64,000 nucleotides of DNA, from the NCBI GenBank assembly GCA_039809045.1, contig JBDHUG010000011.1, positions 16,556 through 80,555 of the forward strand, in the 5' to 3' direction. Position 1 is the stretch's first letter. Each line of letters starts with the position of its first letter. The notes beneath the pieces were generated by a model. It was not told the DNA's origin. It ran no database searches and saw only the letters and a list, made by a program, of their open reading frames with translations. Source of the stretch: Gemmatales bacterium. Lineage in GTDB: Bacteria > Planctomycetota > Planctomycetia > Gemmatales > HRBIN36. Below are positions 49,663 to 59,599 of this stretch, one piece after another. A program made the translations under genes and the position numbers.

Positions 49663-50385
49663 TCAAGTTCGAGGCCGACGCATGTATTTTTCTAAAATGG
49701 CTTTTGCAGCGTCCGAAGTTGCTCGACTGTCAGATACTTTTTGTTTCACTTTGGTATCGGGTTTGGCATCACTCGCTTTGGCGTCTTCCTCAGGTTCAGC
49801 ATCTTCGGTGTTTGTTTGCGTCGCTTGATCTGCAATGGGCTGCATGATAGTGGTGCCAGAAGGTATCTCATTTGACCGAGTACTATCATCACCTTCAAGG
49901 TTAAAAAGCAGCTCAGCAATGTCGTCTTCTTCAGAGCCGCCGCCAGCATTTGCTGGAGTGGTAGGCAGTTTCTTCAGGGCTGGGTTACTTCCAGATCCAG
50001 TTGTGGTTAATTTTTTTTGTGTGTTCGTATCAGATAAAGTCGCGTTCAGTTTATCAGAAACTGTGTCAGAATTGGATGGAGAAGTGGGGGTCGGGACGAG
50101 TTTGACTCGAAAACAAAGCGGCCCCAATTTAAGCTCATCACCATCCCTGATTTCTGCTTCTCCCTTGACTTGAACCTGGTTAATGAGTGTTCCATTGGTA
50201 CTGCCGAAATCGCGGACATAAGCTTGCTCACCGCGAATGCAAATGGCACAATGCCGCTTACTTACCAGCGGACTGGCCGGGCGTAGTTGACAATCTGGAT
50301 CTCGACCAATCAAAAAATGCGCTTGTCGGATCGGGATTTCCTTTCCAGCCGGATTCCCTTGTGAAACCACCAAGCTCAACTTCAT
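49663..50385 (-). CDS. FHA-domain protein with an acidic disordered tail
   Basis: IGRDPDC, VSKRHC, DFGSTNGT. Confidence 0.9.
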   Translation of the reverse strand: MKLSLVVSQGNPAGKEIPIRQAHFLIGRDPDCQLRPASPLVSKRHCAICIRGEQAYVRDFGSTNGTLINQVQVKGEAEIRDGDELKLGPLCFRVKLVPTPTSPSNSDTVSDKLNATLSDTNTQKKLTTTGSGSNPALKKLPTTPANAGGGSEEDDIAELLFNLEGDDSTRSNEIPSGTTIMQPIADQATQTNTEDAEPEEDAKASDAKPDTKVKQKVSDSRATSDAAKAILEKYMRRPRT

Positions 50386-50743: not shown

Positions 50744-53700
50744 ATGAGCACAGGTCAATTCGAAGTTTTGATCGTGGGTGGTGGGTGTGCAGGACTCAGT
50801 GCTGCCATCGGGCTGGCTAAAACTGGCATTTCCGTGGCTGTCGTTGAGGCAGCTATTTACCCCGGTGCGGAAAATTGGTCGGGATGCGTTTACTTCTGTG
50901 AAAACCTGGTCGAGCCGGAGCTCCTTGGCCCCGAAGGCCTGCAACAACTTGCCTGGGAAAGGAGATTAGTTCGTCGCGGTGCATGGGTCGGCAACGGCCA
51001 AAGTTTGTTTGGCATATCCTACGAAAATGCCGCTTGTTTTCGCCATTGTTACACAGTGTTAAGGCCCATTTTTGACCATCACCTAGCGCAGATCGCCATG
51101 CAACACGGTGTGGTCTTGTTAAATCAAACCACCGCCGAGAGCCTCATTCGTGAAGGTCAACGCGTCATCGGCATCACCACCCAGCGCGGCCCGCTTTATG
51201 GCCGACTTGTTTTTTTGGCTGAGGGTGATGCTTCACACTTAGTCACGAAAGAGGGCTATGAACGCATTCCGCATGACCAAAAACATCCCAAGTATCTACA
51301 TGGAATCAAACAGGTACTCGAACTACCCCCAGAGTTGATTGAGCGCAATTTTGGTCTAAAGCCGGGCGAAGGTGCTGCGTGTGAAGTTATTTTGCGCAAT
51401 GCAAAGCTGCATGGGAAATCACTGCATCTAAATATGGGAGGCTTCATTTACACCAACCATGCTAGTCTGTCCATGGGTCTGGTGTTGCCCGCCGAGCATT
51501 TGCATGAGCACTTCGCTGGTGATCCGCATCTGCTACTGGAATGGTTTGAGAATCTGCCAGACTTGCAGCCTTGGTTCCGTGATGGCGTCCGCAGCGTCTT
51601 TGGAGCCAAGCTCATTCGCGGCGGGGGGACTCGCGAATTCCCGCAAATGGTCGATGATGGCTTGGCCATTGGCGGCGCGGCTACCGGGTTAGGCGTGGAT
51701 TTCCCTTACCCAAATTACACTGGCCCTGCCACACGCATGGGGTTGGAGTTGGTGCGAGCGGTGCATAAGATCCGCTCCCAAAAAGGGACCTATTCGGCTG
51801 CCGAACTGCAACAACATTATCTCCGACCTTTGAAAGCGACACGCTATTGGCAAGATGCTGCATTTCTTCGCGATTGGCCCGGTTATGTCGAGCGCACGCA
51901 CTTCTTTTTCGACCGCCAAGTGGATTTGCTTTTGGGCAGCGCACAATTACTGGCTCAAAAGGGCCAGGAAGAAAGTGCACGCTTCAATCATGTCACTGAC
52001 CTTTTGAAACAAGAATGGCTGTCCAAAGAGGCACAAGCGTCGATCCAACACGACCTTCATCACTTAGAGAAAGCGCTACCGATTAAGAGGGTATTCAAGC
52101 GACCACCGCTGCCACTGATGTTGGTCGAAAGCTGGCTGCACTTTGTTGGACAATTGACTGGTCTCAAAAAGCCAGCACCAGACGTGGGTCAAATTCGCTG
52201 GCACTACAGCGTTCGGGGGGAACCCATGCTCGAGCATGGTTTTCCCAGTATTATTCAGCAAACCATGGAACAAATGCAGCCAAGCCTGGCGCGGGCTGCT
52301 TATGAGCTGTATGCCAATGACAACACACCTTTACCCCAAAAAGTTAATCGAGCCCTTCAATCACTTAGACTGCATTTGCCCTGGGCAGCGCTGTTGCGGC
52401 TTTCTTGGCGTTTGCTGCCACAGGTTTGGCGCTTGTTCAAAAAATCCCCCGCCCTTGCACACCGCATTGACCTCGAACAACTGGCACCGCAACCCGACCT
52501 GACGCCCTGGCTTGCTCCAGCACAACAAAAATGGGAAGACCGTTTGGGCCGTCTAGGTTACTTGTCTGATCGGCGTTCACATATCCACGTGTATTGGCCT
52601 CAGCAATTGAATAACAAAAACAACATCACCGAAGCTGGCCTTTGGCATGTCTGTCCAGCTCATGTGTATGAGGCTCGCACCAACTCGTTGGGACAATTGC
52701 AAATCGTTGTGAATCACGAAAATTGCATCAAATGCGAAACCTGTTGGCGTACGAGCGACCTCGTCGATTGGGGTCGCGATGGCCTGCATCGCTTCATTTA
52801 TGCCGTGCAGTCTCCTGTGACGATCAAGCTCCTGGCCACTCAAGATGCACCGGAACTGCGTAAACCATTGTCCCCGGAGCAAACCGATCCTTGGCTTGAC
52901 GTCCGAGCCAATTCAACGAAACCGCCAAGAGAGATCCTATCGCACATCCACTCTCTTGAACGACAGCTTGATAACTTTATTTCCGCTCTTGGTGCCGAGC
53001 CGAGAACGATGGATGCCGCTCGCAGCCAGTTCTTAAGCAAGCTCGCAGCTTGGATTGATGCACAGGCGAAGCGATTACGAATCGACCTGGAACAACACCT
53101 TCCAAACAGGTTGCCTGAACATAAGGCTACCACTCAACCAAGCCATGAGCGTGACTTGTTCGCCGACATGACACAGCGGATCGGACACATCCAGCAATAC
53201 ATCGAACAAAAACGCTTTGCCTGGGCGGCCAGTGCGTGCAGACATATCCAGCAACACCACCTCCAAGGGCTCAAAGCGCTTTTGGGCTGCCCCCTTGCAG
53301 TTGACAGGTTGAATGACAACGCAGCGTGGGATCTACCACTGCAACCTATGTTGCAGGCGGATACGCAGCGTTCATCAGCCAACCGAGCGATTCAACCATG
53401 GCGTCAGCGGATTGAAGAGCTATGGGGACCTTACTTATGGCGTGAACTTGACCAAGGACACAAACTAACGCCGCCGCAAAATGAAGTATTGGCCGATGCT
53501 TTGGCCTATGTGCCTGAATTGGAATCTACGCAGCTCGATCAAACTCTGCACCCTGCGGCACGCAAGGAAATCTTAGCTGAATTGGGAAGGCGGGACCCTT
53601 CCATAGGTTATCGGTTTGCCCATCACTTATGGGTCCGCGATTTGTTACAGCTATTCGGCTCTGATATGCAACGCCATGCTTGGCGGCAACTCACTCTACA

Positions 53701-56700
53701 GAAGCAGTGGTCTGCTTACGTGAATCTTGACAATGGCTCCATTCAAAGCGACGGCTGCCGCGGTTCTGCAACCATGCTTCCACTTGTCGATGCTTACTTG
53801 ATTCGCATCCATGATCGACTGTTTTGGGTAACCGCCAAGGAATTAGGCAGTCAACTCCAACCCGTCATCGGCCTGGGGTTGCGTGGCACGCCTCTTTGTC
53901 AGATCGATTTGAACGATTTCCCATTACCCAACGATGCTGTGAAATTGGAACCCAACAAGGTATCAACGGCTTATGAAGTCATCAGTCAAACCGATCTGAT
54001 CGCTATCGCCCTGGGCATGGCCGATCAGTTAACCCTCCGTTGCACACAACATGCTGCCAATCGGGTTCAATTTCCAGGGATGTTTCATGATGAGCGCAGT
54101 CGCGATACCATTGGTAAATTTGGTGCAGTGAAGAAAATGTTGGCTGAGATGGGTGCGCATCGAATAGTGATCGAGACCCTTTGTTACAATCTATCACCGC
54201 AGGATTTTCAGCCTGATACCGTGAAGCGAGTAACGCTCGCTAAGGCAGCCACGGCCCAACTGCTGGGCACATCGCCTGGGAGCCTGTCATATAATGCCGG
54301 CCAGATTTTCGGCGGGACTGGCTATTCCGAAGACGACATCCTTTCCAAGTATTACCGCGATGCATCGGCGTGGCGGTTCCTGGCAGTGGATAGTCATCAA
54401 GCCATGCATTTGCATGGCCAACAACTGGCCCATGCTGCTTGTCATGAACGGGAATCGGCCTGGATGGAAGAGATTCAAGCAACTAACGTACTGCAGGGTG
54501 AAGCGGTAACGCTACTGCAGCAGATTGAAGACTTGCGTCAACCTTTGAACAAGATATCATCAGCGATTGCGGAAGCACGCGGTTGGGTCGATGCCTTCCT
54601 TTTTGCAAGCAAGTCGTTGCTGCTGCGATTATTCGCTCAATTAGCATCAGGGTTCGATTCAGAACTTACCTGGTCGATGTGGGAGGTGTGGCACACTTTC
54701 TTGCAACGATGGTTAGCCCGCTATTGGGAAATGATTCAACCATCCCCCATGAGCACTCGTTCACTCGAAGTCCAGGTGAATGGTTTTCAGTCTATCGATG
54801 ATTATCGTCAATTTCTGGCACAACCCATAAAGGCCTTGGTTCAGCCATCAGGCAAGCCTAATGTTTCTGATCCTGCCACAAAGAAAGCCCTGGCCTACCA
54901 GACTGGTGATTTCCTGGTCGGACCGATCCAACTCACATTGCCACGCTACACGCCTGAAATGATCGAAACCGATAAAACGCTTGCCGCCACAGATAGCCAA
55001 TTCCATGATCTGGTGATACAGCAATTCGGCTCATTAAGAAAAGAAATGCTCTTTGAACGCTACATTGAAGCCAACCATTTGCCTGATAATGCAGATTTAG
55101 ATTATTGCCGCCAGCACGGCTTTTTCCGCATGCCCATTCCCTCCAGCCTGGGTGGCGAAGGCAAGTTGAAAGCGGAATATTACAGCTTGGTCATGCAAAC
55201 GAATCAATTTGCCGACGCGACCATGTCTCTGCTCATACAGGCCAACACGAGCATCGGCACATCCCCCATATTGTTTGCCCGTGACAAGGACCTGCCCAAA
55301 GCGATCAAGGAATGCAAGCCCTTTGCACATGATGAAGAACTTCATGCCAAAGTTGGTTTGTTGCTCGATGCAATGGCCCAGCGTGTACATGTCCAAGATG
55401 TCGCTGGCGCTCAAGCCACACTTAAGGAATTGCAACCGCTGCTCGATAGCGCCATGAAATCGAGCGCTCTCAAACCTTGTCTTCAACCCCTCATCGATAT
55501 TTGGAAAAGTGTTACTCGAGCCGTGCCTTTAGGCGATTTGAAAAAAGCAAGCAAAGCGAAAGACTTGCCTGACGCCTGGCAAAAAAGCGTTGCTCTCGCA
55601 AAGGATCTGGTCAGCGAGTTGGACCTTCGACTCCAAGCCTGCGATTTAGGATTGCGCTGGATTGCCAGCGGGCAAATCTCCGCATTCGCTTTGACCGAAC
55701 CTTCGGCAGGTTCCGATACAGCTCGTGTGGCCACCCGGGCCAAGTTGGTTTCTGTACCTGTGACAAAGGATGACGATGGCGTGTTGTCCTTTCAACTTCC
55801 CGATGGCGGTGGCCGCCGTGTTCTACTCGATGCATCCCGACTTGAATTTCGACCGGATGGAGCGTTTTACCGTTATCAAGAGAATGCTGAGCCTGCGCGC
55901 ATCATGTTTGATGAATACGACTATGAAACCGATGATCCCAACCGCTTCCGCTATTACCAACATGGACAGCGAAAAGTTCCATTCACCGACATTGCCTACC
56001 TGCGCCAACGGGATGGACAAACCTGGTACGATTATTGGGAAATGACCGGCGCGAAGATGTGGATCACCAATGGCCGCATGTCGGGCATTATGAGCCTCTA
56101 CGCGAAGACAAGCCAAGGAGTGACCGGCTTCATCGTTGATCGGCATGCAGAAGGCTTTATTGTGGGCAAGGACGAAGCCAAAATGGGGCAAAACGGTTCC
56201 CCCACCAACGAAATCGCCTTGCAAGCTGTTCGTGTGCCAAAGGAAAACGTCTTGGGTCTGGAAGGCCGGGGGCAAGTCAATGCTCTCGAAACACTGAATG
56301 TCGGCCGGGCAGGTTTAGCGATGTCATCGGTCAGCCAGATGCGCACGCTGATCGAGATGGGACAAAACCATTGTCAACAACCTGCCGCCAACAGTAAGCC
56401 CCTTTCCCATCACCTGGCTATCGTTCGTGAAGAAACCTGGATTGCCGAAAGTCTGGCTTACATGGTGATCGGACAGTTTGAACATCCATCGACCCAAGCC
56501 GTGCGCATGGAGTCCGCCATCGCCAAGATGCTGGTTAGCGAGTTGCTGCATAGCAGCATCGAGCACACAGAAGTCTTGTTTGGCTTGGCCAGTCAAACGC
56601 GACAACATCTCGTGGAAAAACGCAAACGGGATGCCCGCATCATCAATATTTACGAAGGCACCAATGAGGTGCAGCGTTTCCTGCTTGTAAAAGAACTGGT

Positions 56701-59086
56701 GGGCGATGTGCTTCCGCGATGGCAACAAGAGCCCATTGCTTTGAACAGTGACCCAATCAGTCAGCAATTGCTGGATCTGCATCAACGATTCCGCGAGCAA
56801 CTACAAGCTGCCGCCCAACTTTTTGGGCAAGGCCTGTGGCAGAATCCGAATCTGCAACCAACCGTTTTCTGGTTGGCCGAAGCTTCGGCCTGGCTCTTGG
56901 CAGCGCAAGCAGTGGCAGGTCGGCTCTTTTGGTTGAAAGGATGCAAGGCGAAGTTAAAGCAACCGTCCTGCACAGAAACGGGCCAGCTGGCCCTTGCACG
57001 ATGCCTGAACGAAGTTCGTTGGCGGTTGCAGTGGTTCGCGGAAGAATGGCAACGCATCGAAGCATGCCAATATGCAGCCACGATCCGTACAGCCGATTTG
57101 ATGTTCGACCGCTTGCAACATGCCTCACACTATGGTGTCACTTGGTCCAGCGTTATTGAAAAACCCCTTCATGTGCTCGTCGTACTTGAACCCAACGTTG
57201 CAGCCGTTCCACAACCGGCTGTACACGATGGCCAATTGCTGGAATCTTATTGGTCATTGAGTGAAGCTGATGGAGCCGCCCTCGAAGCTGCCTTACGGCT
57301 GCGTGATCAAGCTCCTAAAGAAGTCCACATCACTGCTGCCATGGTGGGGGGACGTTGTTTACTTTCTCTCATGCGTGAGATTGCAGCTCGAGGTGTCGAG
57401 ACACTGCTCGTGCAGGCACCAAGAGATGGGATATCTGTAACCGCTGCTGCTGAAGCTTTGACTCAAGTCATGCGCGAGCGATCATGGGATTTGATTATTG
57501 GACCATCGAGTGCAAAAGATCAAGCCGATGGGCTTTTAGTTCCACTTATGACTTGCTCATTGAAATTACCCTATGCCGGCTCCACCACACAGTTAGCCGT
57601 ACGACACCTTCAAGAGTCAAGTGAATTGCTGCTTCTACAAAGCAATGATCAAACTCGGCAGCGCAACCTGCCCGCGGCAGTTACTCTTGAACCCGGGCTC
57701 GCTTTGCGGTCATACTCGACTCAGGGATATCTGAAGGGGCTTGCCAACCCTTGCCAAATCAAACCTTGGCCTTTGGAAGTCTTGCCCCAAACACTTACCT
57801 GGAAATCGATCAAGCCAGCGGGCACCTTGCCTTCAGATGCGCTCGCCCCGAGCCGCCTCGAACCTTGTGCGGCAGCCGATTGGCTTCTGCAGTCCTTGGG
57901 CGTAAAGGGAGAACGCAATGCACCTGCTGAACCGTTAGCAGTATCCTTTTCTGATACAAGCGGGCCGTGCCGCATCGATCATGCTGCCGCCTTGGCCATC
58001 ATCGCCTGTGATGCAGACGGTCGTCTGAGCCATGCTGCGCTTGCTTGCTCGCGTGCCGCACAGAGGCAAGCCAATTCAGCCGCTTGTCTGTTGCTCACCC
58101 CTGCCAATACTGAAGCACAGGAAAAAGCCACACAAACCTTACTCAGCTTAGGCTTAAGTCACATCCATATCGTTCAGCACCCTTTGCTGACCGAGTCTGA
58201 AGTATTGCGTTCACAAGTGCTGCAAGCAGCCTGGCCAAACTTTAAACAGGAACCTGAATTCATCGTAGCCGAGCGTTGGGCAGACCTGGCCTTGGCTACA
58301 ATCCGCCGAACTCAATCGTCGCAGCCCAACTTTGAACCACGGTTGAAACGATTGGCACTTGGTAAAGACTTCATCGGTGCAGAAAGCAGCCGACATGCTG
58401 CCAAACTGCTCGCTCGCCAAACCTGGTCCAAGCCTAGTTTCAAAAAGCCCTTATGGATCACCGTGACGGACGATGTTGAGCTCGAAGGCGACCCTGCGGC
58501 TATGGTTGAAACTGCATCGCCGCCAGTCGTCTTTCGCTGGTCGCCAAACCTCGACCGATTGTTTGGCCAGCAAGACATGGTTCGGCTACTCGGTGAACTG
58601 AAAAGTGCAACTGGAACCATACGTCTCAGTGAAGCGGAATACATCATTGACGTGGGTTACGGCGTCGCCAATCGCGATGGCTACGAAGCCGTAATCGAAC
58701 CGCTTGAAAAAGCTCTGAAACAAATAGGCGTCAAGCAAGTGCAGATCGGCGGCTCACGCAAGGTAACGGAAGAACTGAACATCTTGCCTATCGATCGACA
58801 GATTGGACAGTCGGGTGTTTCCGTGAACCCCAAGATTCTGCTGGCCATTGGTATCAGCGGTGCTCCCCAGCATTTGCAGTACATTGGCCCACGCGCCCAT
58901 ATTCTGTGCTTTAACAAAGACCCTGAAGCCCCACTGATGACTTTAAACCAGCGACAACCCAAGCCGATCATTTATCCCATTGTTGGTGATCTGTTTCAAA
59001 CCGTGCCTGCGTTTGTTCATGCTTTACAACAAGATGGCAACTCAACCGCCCAAACGGAACCCAGCCGTACTGATGGATCGACATAA
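50744..59086 (+). CDS. Giant flavoprotein fusion: FixC/ETF-QO, Fe-S, acyl-CoA dehydrogenase x2, ETF-beta, ETF-alpha
   Basis: Single 2780-aa ORF: IVGGGCAG/GAENWSG (FixC); CPAHVYE...NCIKCETC (Fe-S); QIFGGTGY (ACAD1); FALTEPSAGSD, GAKMWITNG, YEGTNEVQR (ACAD2); AALEAALRLRD (EtfB); GGSRKV...QIGQSG...GISGAPQH...NKDPEAP (EtfA). Confidence 0.88.
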   Translation: MSTGQFEVLIVGGGCAGLSAAIGLAKTGISVAVVEAAIYPGAENWSGCVYFCENLVEPELLGPEGLQQLAWERRLVRRGAWVGNGQSLFGISYENAACFRHCYTVLRPIFDHHLAQIAMQHGVVLLNQTTAESLIREGQRVIGITTQRGPLYGRLVFLAEGDASHLVTKEGYERIPHDQKHPKYLHGIKQVLELPPELIERNFGLKPGEGAACEVILRNAKLHGKSLHLNMGGFIYTNHASLSMGLVLPAEHLHEHFAGDPHLLLEWFENLPDLQPWFRDGVRSVFGAKLIRGGGTREFPQMVDDGLAIGGAATGLGVDFPYPNYTGPATRMGLELVRAVHKIRSQKGTYSAAELQQHYLRPLKATRYWQDAAFLRDWPGYVERTHFFFDRQVDLLLGSAQLLAQKGQEESARFNHVTDLLKQEWLSKEAQASIQHDLHHLEKALPIKRVFKRPPLPLMLVESWLHFVGQLTGLKKPAPDVGQIRWHYSVRGEPMLEHGFPSIIQQTMEQMQPSLARAAYELYANDNTPLPQKVNRALQSLRLHLPWAALLRLSWRLLPQVWRLFKKSPALAHRIDLEQLAPQPDLTPWLAPAQQKWEDRLGRLGYLSDRRSHIHVYWPQQLNNKNNITEAGLWHVCPAHVYEARTNSLGQLQIVVNHENCIKCETCWRTSDLVDWGRDGLHRFIYAVQSPVTIKLLATQDAPELRKPLSPEQTDPWLDVRANSTKPPREILSHIHSLERQLDNFISALGAEPRTMDAARSQFLSKLAAWIDAQAKRLRIDLEQHLPNRLPEHKATTQPSHERDLFADMTQRIGHIQQYIEQKRFAWAASACRHIQQHHLQGLKALLGCPLAVDRLNDNAAWDLPLQPMLQADTQRSSANRAIQPWRQRIEELWGPYLWRELDQGHKLTPPQNEVLADALAYVPELESTQLDQTLHPAARKEILAELGRRDPSIGYRFAHHLWVRDLLQLFGSDMQRHAWRQLTLQKQWSAYVNLDNGSIQSDGCRGSATMLPLVDAYLIRIHDRLFWVTAKELGSQLQPVIGLGLRGTPLCQIDLNDFPLPNDAVKLEPNKVSTAYEVISQTDLIAIALGMADQLTLRCTQHAANRVQFPGMFHDERSRDTIGKFGAVKKMLAEMGAHRIVIETLCYNLSPQDFQPDTVKRVTLAKAATAQLLGTSPGSLSYNAGQIFGGTGYSEDDILSKYYRDASAWRFLAVDSHQAMHLHGQQLAHAACHERESAWMEEIQATNVLQGEAVTLLQQIEDLRQPLNKISSAIAEARGWVDAFLFASKSLLLRLFAQLASGFDSELTWSMWEVWHTFLQRWLARYWEMIQPSPMSTRSLEVQVNGFQSIDDYRQFLAQPIKALVQPSGKPNVSDPATKKALAYQTGDFLVGPIQLTLPRYTPEMIETDKTLAATDSQFHDLVIQQFGSLRKEMLFERYIEANHLPDNADLDYCRQHGFFRMPIPSSLGGEGKLKAEYYSLVMQTNQFADATMSLLIQANTSIGTSPILFARDKDLPKAIKECKPFAHDEELHAKVGLLLDAMAQRVHVQDVAGAQATLKELQPLLDSAMKSSALKPCLQPLIDIWKSVTRAVPLGDLKKASKAKDLPDAWQKSVALAKDLVSELDLRLQACDLGLRWIASGQISAFALTEPSAGSDTARVATRAKLVSVPVTKDDDGVLSFQLPDGGGRRVLLDASRLEFRPDGAFYRYQENAEPARIMFDEYDYETDDPNRFRYYQHGQRKVPFTDIAYLRQRDGQTWYDYWEMTGAKMWITNGRMSGIMSLYAKTSQGVTGFIVDRHAEGFIVGKDEAKMGQNGSPTNEIALQAVRVPKENVLGLEGRGQVNALETLNVGRAGLAMSSVSQMRTLIEMGQNHCQQPAANSKPLSHHLAIVREETWIAESLAYMVIGQFEHPSTQAVRMESAIAKMLVSELLHSSIEHTEVLFGLASQTRQHLVEKRKRDARIINIYEGTNEVQRFLLVKELVGDVLPRWQQEPIALNSDPISQQLLDLHQRFREQLQAAAQLFGQGLWQNPNLQPTVFWLAEASAWLLAAQAVAGRLFWLKGCKAKLKQPSCTETGQLALARCLNEVRWRLQWFAEEWQRIEACQYAATIRTADLMFDRLQHASHYGVTWSSVIEKPLHVLVVLEPNVAAVPQPAVHDGQLLESYWSLSEADGAALEAALRLRDQAPKEVHITAAMVGGRCLLSLMREIAARGVETLLVQAPRDGISVTAAAEALTQVMRERSWDLIIGPSSAKDQADGLLVPLMTCSLKLPYAGSTTQLAVRHLQESSELLLLQSNDQTRQRNLPAAVTLEPGLALRSYSTQGYLKGLANPCQIKPWPLEVLPQTLTWKSIKPAGTLPSDALAPSRLEPCAAADWLLQSLGVKGERNAPAEPLAVSFSDTSGPCRIDHAAALAIIACDADGRLSHAALACSRAAQRQANSAACLLLTPANTEAQEKATQTLLSLGLSHIHIVQHPLLTESEVLRSQVLQAAWPNFKQEPEFIVAERWADLALATIRRTQSSQPNFEPRLKRLALGKDFIGAESSRHAAKLLARQTWSKPSFKKPLWITVTDDVELEGDPAAMVETASPPVVFRWSPNLDRLFGQQDMVRLLGELKSATGTIRLSEAEYIIDVGYGVANRDGYEAVIEPLEKALKQIGVKQVQIGGSRKVTEELNILPIDRQIGQSGVSVNPKILLAIGISGAPQHLQYIGPRAHILCFNKDPEAPLMTLNQRQPKPIIYPIVGDLFQTVPAFVHALQQDGNSTAQTEPSRTDGST

Positions 59087-59161
59087 GTGTTGGCATCGGT
59101 CAACGGTAGAATATGACTCCGTTTGCATCGTACTATCGAGATTCCCTTGAGACTGAACCAT

Positions 59162-59599
59162 ATGGCTAAAGATAAAATCGCTGCAGGAATTTTGCTTTAT
59201 CGCCACTTGCACGCCCGGTGGGAAGTTCTGCTGGTTCATCCTTCAGGCGCTTATAACCGAGACAAACCCTGGAGCATTCCCAAAGGGTTGCCCGACCCTG
59301 GCGAGACGCTAGAGCAGGCTGCACGTCGAGAGACCCGTGAGGAAGCAGGTGTGGTGGTCGATGGCGACTTGATTTACTTAGGCACCATCATTTATCAAAA
59401 AAGCAAGAAAACGATTCATTGCTATGCTGCCCCTGCCCCGAGCGATGCAGCTCCTTTTTGTGCTTCCTGGGAAGTAGACCATGCCCGTTTCATGACCATC
59501 GAAGAAGCATCTCGCATCATCCATCCCGACCAAAAACCTTTTCTAGATCGTTTGCATGAATGGTTGCAGCAAAACCAACCGCAAGGTAACCTAAGTTAA
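59162..59599 (+). CDS. Nudix hydrolase
   Basis: WSIPKG followed by the Nudix box GLPDPGETLEQAARRETREEAG. Confidence 0.88.
   Translation: MAKDKIAAGILLYRHLHARWEVLLVHPSGAYNRDKPWSIPKGLPDPGETLEQAARRETREEAGVVVDGDLIYLGTIIYQKSKKTIHCYAAPAPSDAAPFCASWEVDHARFMTIEEASRIIHPDQKPFLDRLHEWLQQNQPQGNLS

Follow-up and report, generated by a model that had tools for sequence, protein, structure and literature searches.

A single-chain fusion of acyl-CoA dehydrogenase, ETF-like and quinone-reductase-like domains in Gemmatales, with a putative composite flavin site built from two complementary dehydrogenase modules

VLCAD, an acyl-CoA dehydrogenase (ACAD), is a homodimer with two flavin adenine dinucleotide (FAD) molecules per dimer. 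In the α2β2 ACADs ChsE4-ChsE5, ChsE1-ChsE2, IpdE1-IpdE2 and Scd1AB, according to the pertinent passages of two reports, each pair of unlike subunits makes one FAD site and one active site, the α unit binding the isoalloxazine and holding the catalytic Glu and the β unit binding the ADP-ribose part (PMC10925408, PMC8399759). Both units can also lie in one polypeptide: the section of PMC8399759 on CasC of R. jostii RHA1 describes an N-terminal ACAD unit needed for FAD binding and a catalytic Glu found in the C-terminal unit only. FadE34 is the same protein as ChsE3 (PMC6678751). Here we describe a pair of complementary ACAD units in a 64,000-nucleotide (nt) stretch of a Gemmatales genome, hereafter the window (contig JBDHUG010000011.1, positions 16,556 to 80,555, forward strand). 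The two units, called module 1 and module 2, occupy the region 53400-57100, which lies entirely within frame 1 of a plus-strand open reading frame (ORF) extending from 50744 to 59086. From the N- to the C-terminus, Pfam, NCBIfam and PDB searches identified in the encoded protein a flavoprotein similar to FixC and to electron transfer flavoprotein (ETF)-quinone oxidoreductase (ETF-QO), a domain with one [4Fe-4S] motif, a degenerate ACAD, a VLCAD-type ACAD, an EtfB-like part and an EtfA-like part. An earlier note on this DNA had treated the region as a di-domain; its two ACAD units are real, but they are only the middle of a 2780-amino-acid (aa) FixC-FixX-ACAD-ACAD-EtfB-EtfA fusion.

By sequence, the catalytic Glu and the flavin-side motifs are found in module 2 only and the ADP-side donor motifs in module 1 only. 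The conservation of this split was followed in an alignment of 112 of the 120 listed homologues, namely those of at least 2700 aa, the 8 shorter ones being dropped. In module 1, residues R1107, Q1109, F1110, P1111, G1112, K1125, F1126, G1127, Q1187, G1190, G1191 and T1192 are invariant in all 112 sequences. TEPxxGSD, WITN and YEGT are absent from this module both in the translated frame and in the homologue alignment, and RDASAWRFLAVD stands in place of YEGT. The position aligned with the catalytic Glu, 1214, is occupied by Gly, Ala, Leu and Val in 103, 4, 4 and 1 homologues, respectively, while W1210 and R1211 are kept in 111 and 112 of them. Module 2 is the mirror image: T1651, E1652, P1653, A1655-D1658, K1771, M1772, W1773, T1775, N1776 and Y1970-E1975 are invariant in 112 of 112 sequences, and the positions equivalent to the donor residues are variable or read E-E/D-I-H-G-L-A-G-Q across the homologues. 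The complementary pattern was also found in each of the 8 distant loci that cover module 1 (about 30-35% identity). A ninth distant locus covers module 2 only and shows the pattern there, which brings the motif of the YEGT region to 9 loci out of 9. These loci belong to metagenome-assembled genomes (MAGs) labelled Nitrospirota, Verrucomicrobiia, 'Proteobacteria' or uncultured bacterium. The alignments confirm that the split-motif pattern is more than chance, and they indicate strong selection on it. All the motifs that the earlier note had quoted were recovered at its coordinates in frame 1 of the ORF, and both halves of the split it had read from a single sequence are borne out across the family: donor motifs without TEPxxGSD or YEGT in module 1, and TEPSAGSD, KMWITNG and YEGTNE without RxQFG or QxxGGxG in module 2.

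Alignment to ACADs of known structure, which the earlier note had suggested as a check, placed the motifs in register. On human SCAD, 'anrvqf' and 'qifggtgy' of module 1 fall on 'enrmaf' and 'qilggmgy', respectively, and 'yrdasaw' is aligned on 'yrdarit', directly before the catalytic Glu. On MmgC, the TEPSAGSD, WITNG and YEGTNE motifs of module 2 are in register with those of the template, and 'qrvqfgrp' and 'q-iyggygy' of the template stand opposite unrelated residues. E1971 is presumed to be the catalytic base of module 2.

The pairing of the two modules was predicted as a complex of module 1 (aa 900-1240) and module 2 (aa 1425-1995) with FAD, using a 66-row alignment for each and three runs. 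The interface score ipSAE was 0.83, 0.83 and 0.80, the best of 3 controls giving 0.00; in the calibration, which contained no ligand, 58 of 80 solved complexes scored at or above the corresponding mark, as did 2 of 110 mismatched pairs. The three runs share at least 92% of their contacts, and the predicted local distance difference test (pLDDT) value of the partner is at least 87. In the predicted interface, segments 1108-1111 (VQFP), 1126-1132 (FGAV..M) and 1186-1197 (GQIFGGTGYSED) of module 1 face segment 1654-1661, W1773 and segment 1968-1975 (NIYEGTNE) of module 2. Residues 1108-1111, 1126 and 1128-1129 are predicted to contact 1656-1658 and 1975, TEPSAGSD lying in the interface with residues 1109-1110. 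Q1187 and G1190-1191 would contact 1968-1975, including YEGT, with an expected error of 1.0-1.4 Å. At the dead mirror site, aa 1943-1954 of module 2 are predicted to pack on aa 1208-1213 of module 1. A single-chain AlphaFold2 model of aa 901-2085, built from a 28-row alignment (mean pLDDT 83.6, predicted template modelling score 0.85), is consistent with a fixed mutual arrangement of the modules. The predicted contacts are those of the canonical ACAD-dimer interface, which supports binding without proving it. The outcome that the earlier note had named as contrary to its idea, a module 1 that does not pack against the FAD site of module 2, is therefore not what the prediction returns. Its proposal of one composite FAD and active site per chain is supported by the sequence complementarity, by the family-wide invariance and by the predicted ACAD-dimer interface.

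We favour the reading that the protein is a single-chain acyl-CoA:quinone oxidoreductase with one composite ACAD site, carrying out the first step of β-oxidation, and we give it a probability of about 0.65. The two very diverged ACAD units would pack together as the subunits of an ACAD dimer do, with one live flavin site left of the symmetric two. Module 2 would form the pocket for the isoalloxazine with TEPSAGSD and KMWITNG and provide E1971 as the catalytic base, and module 1 would lend the residues for the ADP part of FAD that normally come from the neighbouring subunit (R1107, Q1109, Q1187, G1190 and G1191). With the mirror site dead on both sides, one FAD and one acyl-CoA site would be left per chain. 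Electrons could then pass from fatty acyl-CoA to the ACAD-FAD, to the FAD of a swinging EtfA domain, to the [4Fe-4S] cluster, to the FixC-FAD and finally to membrane quinone. One live site per chain would match the single tethered ETF and the single FixC/FixX-type quinone reductase with its one [4Fe-4S] cluster, and this match could plausibly explain why the second site decayed. The motif pattern with its conservation, the identities of the domains, the distribution of the gene and its neighbours are shown directly, and the packing of the modules is a prediction; the flavin stoichiometry, the electron path, the substrate and the direction of the reaction are what we infer from these features taken together. 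The substrate is most likely a long straight-chain acyl-CoA, since the recurrent gene neighbours described below are of the fadA/fadB type and the catalytic module has a VLCAD-type fold.

With module 2 (aa 1401-2070) as query, phmmer matched MmgC (5lnx) at E 1.1e-34 and ACAD9 and VLCAD at about 1e-32. The fold agrees: residues 482-1185 of the model (aa ~1382-2085) were superposed by VIA-align on 3owa (B. anthracis), 2z1q (T. thermophilus), ACAD9 and VLCAD with Z 24-27 and a root-mean-square deviation of 2.7-3.1 Å over 455-478 residues, the alignment extending through the extra C-terminal helical domain of these templates. Ordinary ACADs of 380 aa rank next, with Z 19-21. The top 10 Foldseek matches of the di-domain model are all VLCAD-type, every listed row of the fold search falling on module 2. 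According to the secondary structure of the model, module 2 also contains two big family-specific insertions, a helical bundle at aa ~1515-1640 and extra beta strands at aa ~1665-1760. Module 2 thus shares the fold of VLCAD, ACAD9, 3owa and 2z1q, including the additional helical domain. Judging by the aligned ACAD motifs, those chains carry both half-sites, whereas module 2 has lost the donor half, having neither RxQFG nor QxxGGxGY, and a degenerate unit supplies it.

Module 1 scored 29.1 bits with PF00441 in the genome search, and its model has the ACAD layout of helix, strand and helix with a pLDDT of about 90. An Atlas feature search of aa 886-1400 returned ACAD clusters with a score of 0.94, two of them named 'very long chain', which serves as a lead only. 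No Pfam family matches the segment between the modules (aa 1236-1424), and at aa 1321-1400 conservation is down to 0.35-0.5. Between the helical segments located after each of the two modules, hhalign detected no likeness (E 0.15). As neither this comparison nor that of the two module profiles (E 0.23) is significant, a tandem duplication of a VLCAD-type gene as the origin of the pair stays a guess. Among proteins of 229-730 aa, 14 free-standing module-1-like proteins were detected at E ≤ 1e-5, many of them fragment-like, coming from short contigs or covering just part of the query; no clear split form of module 1 was seen in this range, lengths of 730-1529 aa falling outside the search.

The remaining parts of the chain were assigned as follows. 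The N-terminal domain matches FixC of T. maritima (7koe_C) with a phmmer E of 2.8e-34 over aa 5-396, and NCBIfam PRK10015 (E 1.8e-34) and FixC (E 9.2e-32), both below their cut-offs; its mean conservation is 0.8-0.9. Pfam Fer4_ETF_QO matches aa 611-667 with 25.0 bits for a cut-off of 24. The cysteines C637, C661, C664 and C667 are invariant in 66 sequences and kept in 8 distant loci, and no further invariant Cys was found in this domain among the same 66 sequences and distant loci, which gives one cluster motif vs the two clusters of FixX. The EtfB-like domain aligns with 4kpu_B, 1efv_B, 7koe_A and others with Z 20-22.5 over 193-228 residues (VIA-align), and scores 34.5 bits with Pfam ETF (cut-off 26.7). 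Pfam ETF_alpha (PF00766) matches aa 2628-2712 with 58.2 bits for a cut-off of 27. In the phmmer search CarE (6fah_A) matches the EtfA-like part at E 7.9e-13, and the EtfA subunits of 4kpu, 1efv, 5ol2 and 7koe match as well, all within E 1e-10 to 1e-13. Along the chain, conservation peaks in the FixC domain, the cluster domain, the C-terminal half of module 1, module 2 and the FAD domain of EtfA (0.85-0.89), with minima in the linkers and the ETF base (about 0.5 for EtfA domain I). No transmembrane-like segment was detected by hydropathy in the 2780-aa chain; this would fit a peripheral protein but proves nothing about the putative reduction of quinone at the membrane.

How far this architecture departs from described systems can be seen part by part. 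CasC and FadE34, which we take to be chains of about 700 aa, the latter a fused two-domain ACAD, stand alone in steroid or bile-acid gene clusters, whereas the pair described here is embedded in a 2780-aa chain with an ETF and a quinone reductase; moreover, its catalytic unit is of the VLCAD type and has a helical domain at the C-terminus as well as two big insertions, and its gene context is fadA/fadB or none. As in CasC, to the extent that PMC8399759 details it, there are two ACAD units per chain in the same order, a donor module 1 and a catalytic module 2. As in the α2β2 ACADs, the modules are complementary in exactly the residues that the relevant passages of PMC10925408 and PMC8399759 divide between α and β units; unlike them, the units are not encoded by separate genes in a steroid context. 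The analogy that the earlier note had drawn with ChsE4-ChsE5 and ChsE1-ChsE2, and with a fused enzyme of the CasC type, is right in kind as far as those passages go (PMC8399759, PMC10925408). Neither the 32 PDB matches of module 1 nor the best 60 of the 73 for module 2 include a ChsE or FadE26-29 chain, and the likeness to the steroid ACADs is for this reason one of design, in which kinship is not demonstrated. With T. maritima EtfABCX/FixABCX (7KOE) and ETF-QO the protein shares the FixC-like flavoprotein, the ferredoxin-like [4Fe-4S] domain and the EtfB- and EtfA-like parts. EtfABCX/FixABCX consists of four separate subunits without ACAD, and its FixX is described with two [4Fe-4S] clusters in the relevant part of PMC6085437; here one chain has one cluster motif and a built-in ACAD pair. 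Bcd-EtfAB (5OL2) and CarCDE (6FAH) likewise hold an ACAD with its own ETF, as separate ACAD subunits and without a quinone reductase; Bcd is, in the same part of PMC6085437, a homotetramer with all sites alive. The order EtfB-then-EtfA in one polypeptide is shared with the SaETF of Sulfolobus acidocaldarius, as the passage on this fusion in PMC12042025 shows.

Since half-site ACADs have already been published, both as α2β2 heteromers and fused as in CasC, the central idea of the earlier note is of a known kind; new here are the VLCAD-type lineage and the context in which the design is found. Literature searches, which covered main texts but not supplements, retrieved no paper on a fusion of FixC/ETF-QO, ACAD and ETF. 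Half-site ACADs have so far come from steroid and bile-acid enzymes, mostly of actinobacteria. The present family is widespread, with at least 458 homologue clusters of 1529-4865 aa among 7485 candidates (the search being limited to that length range); its members come from Gemmatales planctomycetes and from MAGs with labels such as Nitrospirota and Verrucomicrobiia. Most of the 120 listed homologues have about 2800 aa and an identical Pfam set. What makes the protein interesting is chiefly the complete relay in one chain and the way it and ETF occur together or not at all in the lineage, rather than the di-domain by itself. If the favoured reading is true, the protein would offer a naturally occurring model of the relay from ACAD through ETF to ETF-QO in one chain, its fixed stoichiometry being an advantage for following the ETF domain swing by structural and kinetic means, and it could serve as a one-gene part for engineering fatty-acid oxidation. 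It would also allow an annotation fix, as the homologues are currently labelled only 'acyl-CoA dehydrogenase family protein' or 'electron transfer flavoprotein-quinone oxidoreductase'.

The source names of the protein matches are Gemmatales, Gemmataceae or Planctomycetia. A search with module 1 in 201 genomes of the window's phylum gave a match at E ≤ 1e-5 in 27 of them. Ten of the 27, including the window's genome, have strong matches (E ≤ 1.5e-24), all in frames of 1397-2874 aa; the remaining 17 are weak matches to ordinary ACADs and were set aside. Among 30 relatives, the gene was found in 5 of 14 genomes of the same family (frames of 2453-2930 aa); the 16 genomes of the sister family all lack it. 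All 5 carrier relatives, like the window's genome itself, have their sole ETF_alpha match inside the frame of the giant gene. In a fragmented carrier assembly (G206), the ETF_alpha match is a 338-aa frame on another contig. None of 5 non-carrier relatives, all at least 95% complete, has an ETF_alpha match, in a search that as a control misses 4 of 14 reference genomes. Because the sole ETF_alpha of the carriers lies in the giant gene and the non-carriers have no match, ETF in this lineage exists only as part of that gene, and ETF-dependent metabolism is present or absent together with it. The non-carriers (G204, G205, G208, G215 and G219) belong to the same family or order, are 95-99% complete and have genomes of 3.9-9 Mb; the absence of ETF_alpha is unusual for such sizes.

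Gene neighbours were compared in 12 related loci with 3-kb flanks. A thiolase (fadA) and a fadB-type enoyl-CoA hydratase/3-hydroxyacyl-CoA dehydrogenase directly adjoin the giant gene in 4 of the 12 loci (L001, L004, L010 and L013), three of them being confirmed by Pfam and the rest by blastp to those. No steroid- or bile-acid-catabolic neighbour was found in the window or in these 12 loci. Elsewhere in its assembly, the window's genome has two more ACAD-family frames, one thiolase and two crotonases.

Several observations weigh against the favoured reading. Module 1 is weakly recognisable as an ACAD (phmmer E 4.5e-4 to human SCAD, 2vig, with aa 886-1302 as query; Pfam Acyl-CoA_dh_2 22.8 bits for a cut-off of 22.7), and the profile comparison of module 1 with module 2 was not significant, though its register is as expected. 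The structural evidence is all predicted; as ACAD dimers are abundantly solved, the score of the complex may reflect likeness to solved ACAD homodimers, and the placement of FAD is unscored. The pairing may also be between chains, in a domain-swapped manner, module 1 of one chain meeting module 2 of another. The window's genome is 66% complete, and its 'only ETF' holds for the assembled part. In 8 of the 12 related loci the 3-kb flanks contain neither fadA nor fadB but housekeeping or unrelated genes, and the neighbours in the window are unrelated: an ABC transporter, an amidohydrolase, a MutY-like protein, an FHA protein, a NUDIX protein, a YHS protein, CinA and a protease. Finally, the NCBIfam and PDB matches of the ETF part do not separate bifurcating from canonical ETFs.

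This last point leaves room for a flavin-based bifurcating or confurcating machine, in which a second, NADH-reactive FAD in the ETF, as in Bcd-EtfAB, CarCDE and EtfABCX, would couple acyl-CoA or enoyl-CoA chemistry to NAD(H), ferredoxin and quinone, in place of a plain downhill wire. The N-terminal part is indeed closest to the FixC of the bifurcating T. maritima complex, the best ETF-alpha match is CarE of the bifurcating caffeyl-CoA reductase, with 4kpu_A, 5ol2_A and 7koe_B also matching, module 2 matches CarC and C. difficile Bcd well, and the EtfB fold is equally near to bifurcating and canonical ETFs (Z 22.3 and 21.7). Yet the base domains that would have to bind this FAD and NADH are the least conserved folded parts of the protein, with 0.5-0.68 for the EtfB-like domain and the low value of EtfA domain I given above vs 0.85-0.89 for the EtfA FAD domain; there is a single [4Fe-4S] motif vs the two clusters that the FixX passage of PMC6085437 describes; and the gene context, where there is one, is the catabolic fadA/fadB pair. 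We consider such a machine rather unlikely. A wider proposal is that one gene encodes the whole path from acyl-CoA to quinone in a chain of about 300 kDa with 3-4 flavins and one cluster, moves between phyla as a self-contained unit and equips lineages without ETF with a respiratory entry step into β-oxidation; it seems to us unlikely as well. In its boldest form the FixABCX-like ETF core would also bifurcate or confurcate electrons, and coupling to NAD(H) or ferredoxin would then allow the transfer from acyl-CoA to menaquinone, which is slightly uphill.

The earlier note had further proposed a bulky branched, polycyclic or isoprenoid substrate, and a single enlarged site for a steroid side-chain, branched or isoprenoid acyl-CoA, as in ChsE4-ChsE5 or CasC, would have precedent, the half-site design being described so far for steroid and bile-acid ACADs in the relevant passages of PMC8399759 and PMC10925408; the two large family-specific insertions of module 2 could be read in the same sense. 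Nothing else in the data speaks for this part of the note: the only recurrent neighbours are fadA and fadB-type genes, without any steroid context in the window or the 12 loci, MmgC, ACAD9 and VLCAD are the enzymes closest to module 2 in both sequence and fold, and the PDB matches considered for the two modules contain no ChsE chain. A bulky substrate is on this evidence quite improbable. Module 1 might instead be a mere spacer or a docking platform for the ETF or FixC part, or module 2 might homodimerise across chains, which the strong divergence of module 1 and the VLCAD type of module 2, VLCAD being a homodimer, would allow. But neither of the donor motifs required of a homodimer partner is present in module 2, the invariant residues of module 1 are exactly the donor ones, its other active-site motifs being gone, and the predicted interface sets these donor residues on the site of module 2, so we hold both variants to be highly improbable. 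The single-chain oxidoreductase with one composite ACAD site is retained as the preferred reading. The features on which it rests are listed in Table 1.

Table 1. Coordinates in the window of the fusion ORF, its domains and the half-site motifs of the two ACAD modules
Feature	Position	Strand	Residues and basis
Whole fusion protein P0001	50744..59086	+	Single open frame, 2780 aa; ATG start, then GxGxxG Rossmann motif
FixC/ETF-quinone-oxidoreductase-like FAD domain	50744..51943	+	aa 1 to ~400; phmmer to FixC
FixX/ETF-QO-type ferredoxin-like domain, one [4Fe-4S] motif	52574..52813	+	C637, C661, C664, C667; Pfam Fer4_ETF_QO
ACAD module 1, degenerate, non-catalytic	53441..54448	+	aa ~900-1235; SCAD match, PF00441, predicted ACAD layout, no TEPxxGSD/WITN/YEGT
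Donor motif 1 of module 1	54062-54079 and 54110-54130	+	R1107-V-Q-F-P-G ... I-G-K1125-F-G-A-V, with R1107 to G1127 at 54062..54124; invariant donor residues
Donor motif 2 of module 1	54302..54325	+	Q1187-I-F-G-G-T-G-Y; Q1187, G1190, G1191, T1192 invariant
Dead catalytic position of module 1	54356..54391	+	RDASAWRFLAVD in place of YEGT; A1214 aligns with the catalytic Glu
Helical segment and less conserved linker between modules	54449..55015	+	aa 1236-1424; model helices aa ~1237-1331
ACAD module 2, catalytic unit	55016..56713	+	aa ~1425-1990; Pfam Acyl-CoA_dh_N, _M and _1 all match
FALTEPSAGSD of module 2, flavin-side motif	from 55685	+	T1651-E-P-S-A-G-S-D at 55694..55717; invariant residues
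GAKMWITNG of module 2, flavin-side motif	from 56048	+	K1771-M-W-I-T-N-G at 56054..56074; invariant residues
Degenerate donor positions of module 2	56369..56596	+	aa 1876-1887 variable for RxQFG; E1943-V-L-F-G-L-A-S-Q (56570-56596) for QxxGGxGY
IYEGTNEVQR of module 2	from 56648	+	Y1970-E1971-G-T-N-E at 56651..56668; aligns with MmgC YEGTNE
VLCAD-type C-terminal helical domain of module 2	56714..57118	+	aa ~1991-2125; VIA-align
EtfB-like domain	57167..57832	+	aa ~2142-2363; VIA-align to ETF beta subunits
EtfA-like part	57941..59038	+	Rossmann-like domain I aa ~2400-2600, ETF_alpha FAD domain aa ~2610-2765; Pfam, phmmer

Base composition is even along the ORF. Contigs from 4 other activated-sludge or wastewater runs, belonging to four studies, tile the region of the two modules at an identity of at least 99% with no indel reported, some bins being without cover in runs X7 and X9. 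One X7 contig jumps 85 bases (55938-56024); its shorter side has only 38 letters, and it was taken as an ACAD of another organism. In bins 56004-56127 and 56624-56747 the depth of metagenome contigs is 5-10 times that of neighbouring bins, with loose ends on both sides. These bins hold the codons of KMWITNG and YEGTNE, which recur almost letter for letter in the ACAD genes of other organisms sampled there. Among the 22 runs listed as containing this DNA, none is of RNA.

In three loci of Nitrospirota MAGs (L007, L011 and L012) the homologous region is spread over several frames, e.g. 1172 and 1354 aa in L007, the only one where the split falls roughly between module 1 and module 2; these broken frames may be assembly frameshifts or true splits. 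In the window, a gene for a NUDIX hydrolase of 158 aa (59123-59599, plus strand) starts 36 nt past the stop codon of the giant ORF. NCBIfam shows no sign that it is a CoA-pyrophosphatase, its best match being MutT1-like with E 9.6e-10, far below the cut-off. On the other side, a gene for an FHA-domain protein of 240 aa (FHA, Yop-YscD_cpl; 49663-50385, minus strand) is divergent from the giant ORF, with a gap of 358 nt. Finally, another contig of the same genome (G000:C6:11658-11780) has a 2189-aa frame with a weak ketoacyl-synthase/thiolase-like match, which may be a giant gene of the polyketide- or fatty-acid-synthase type.

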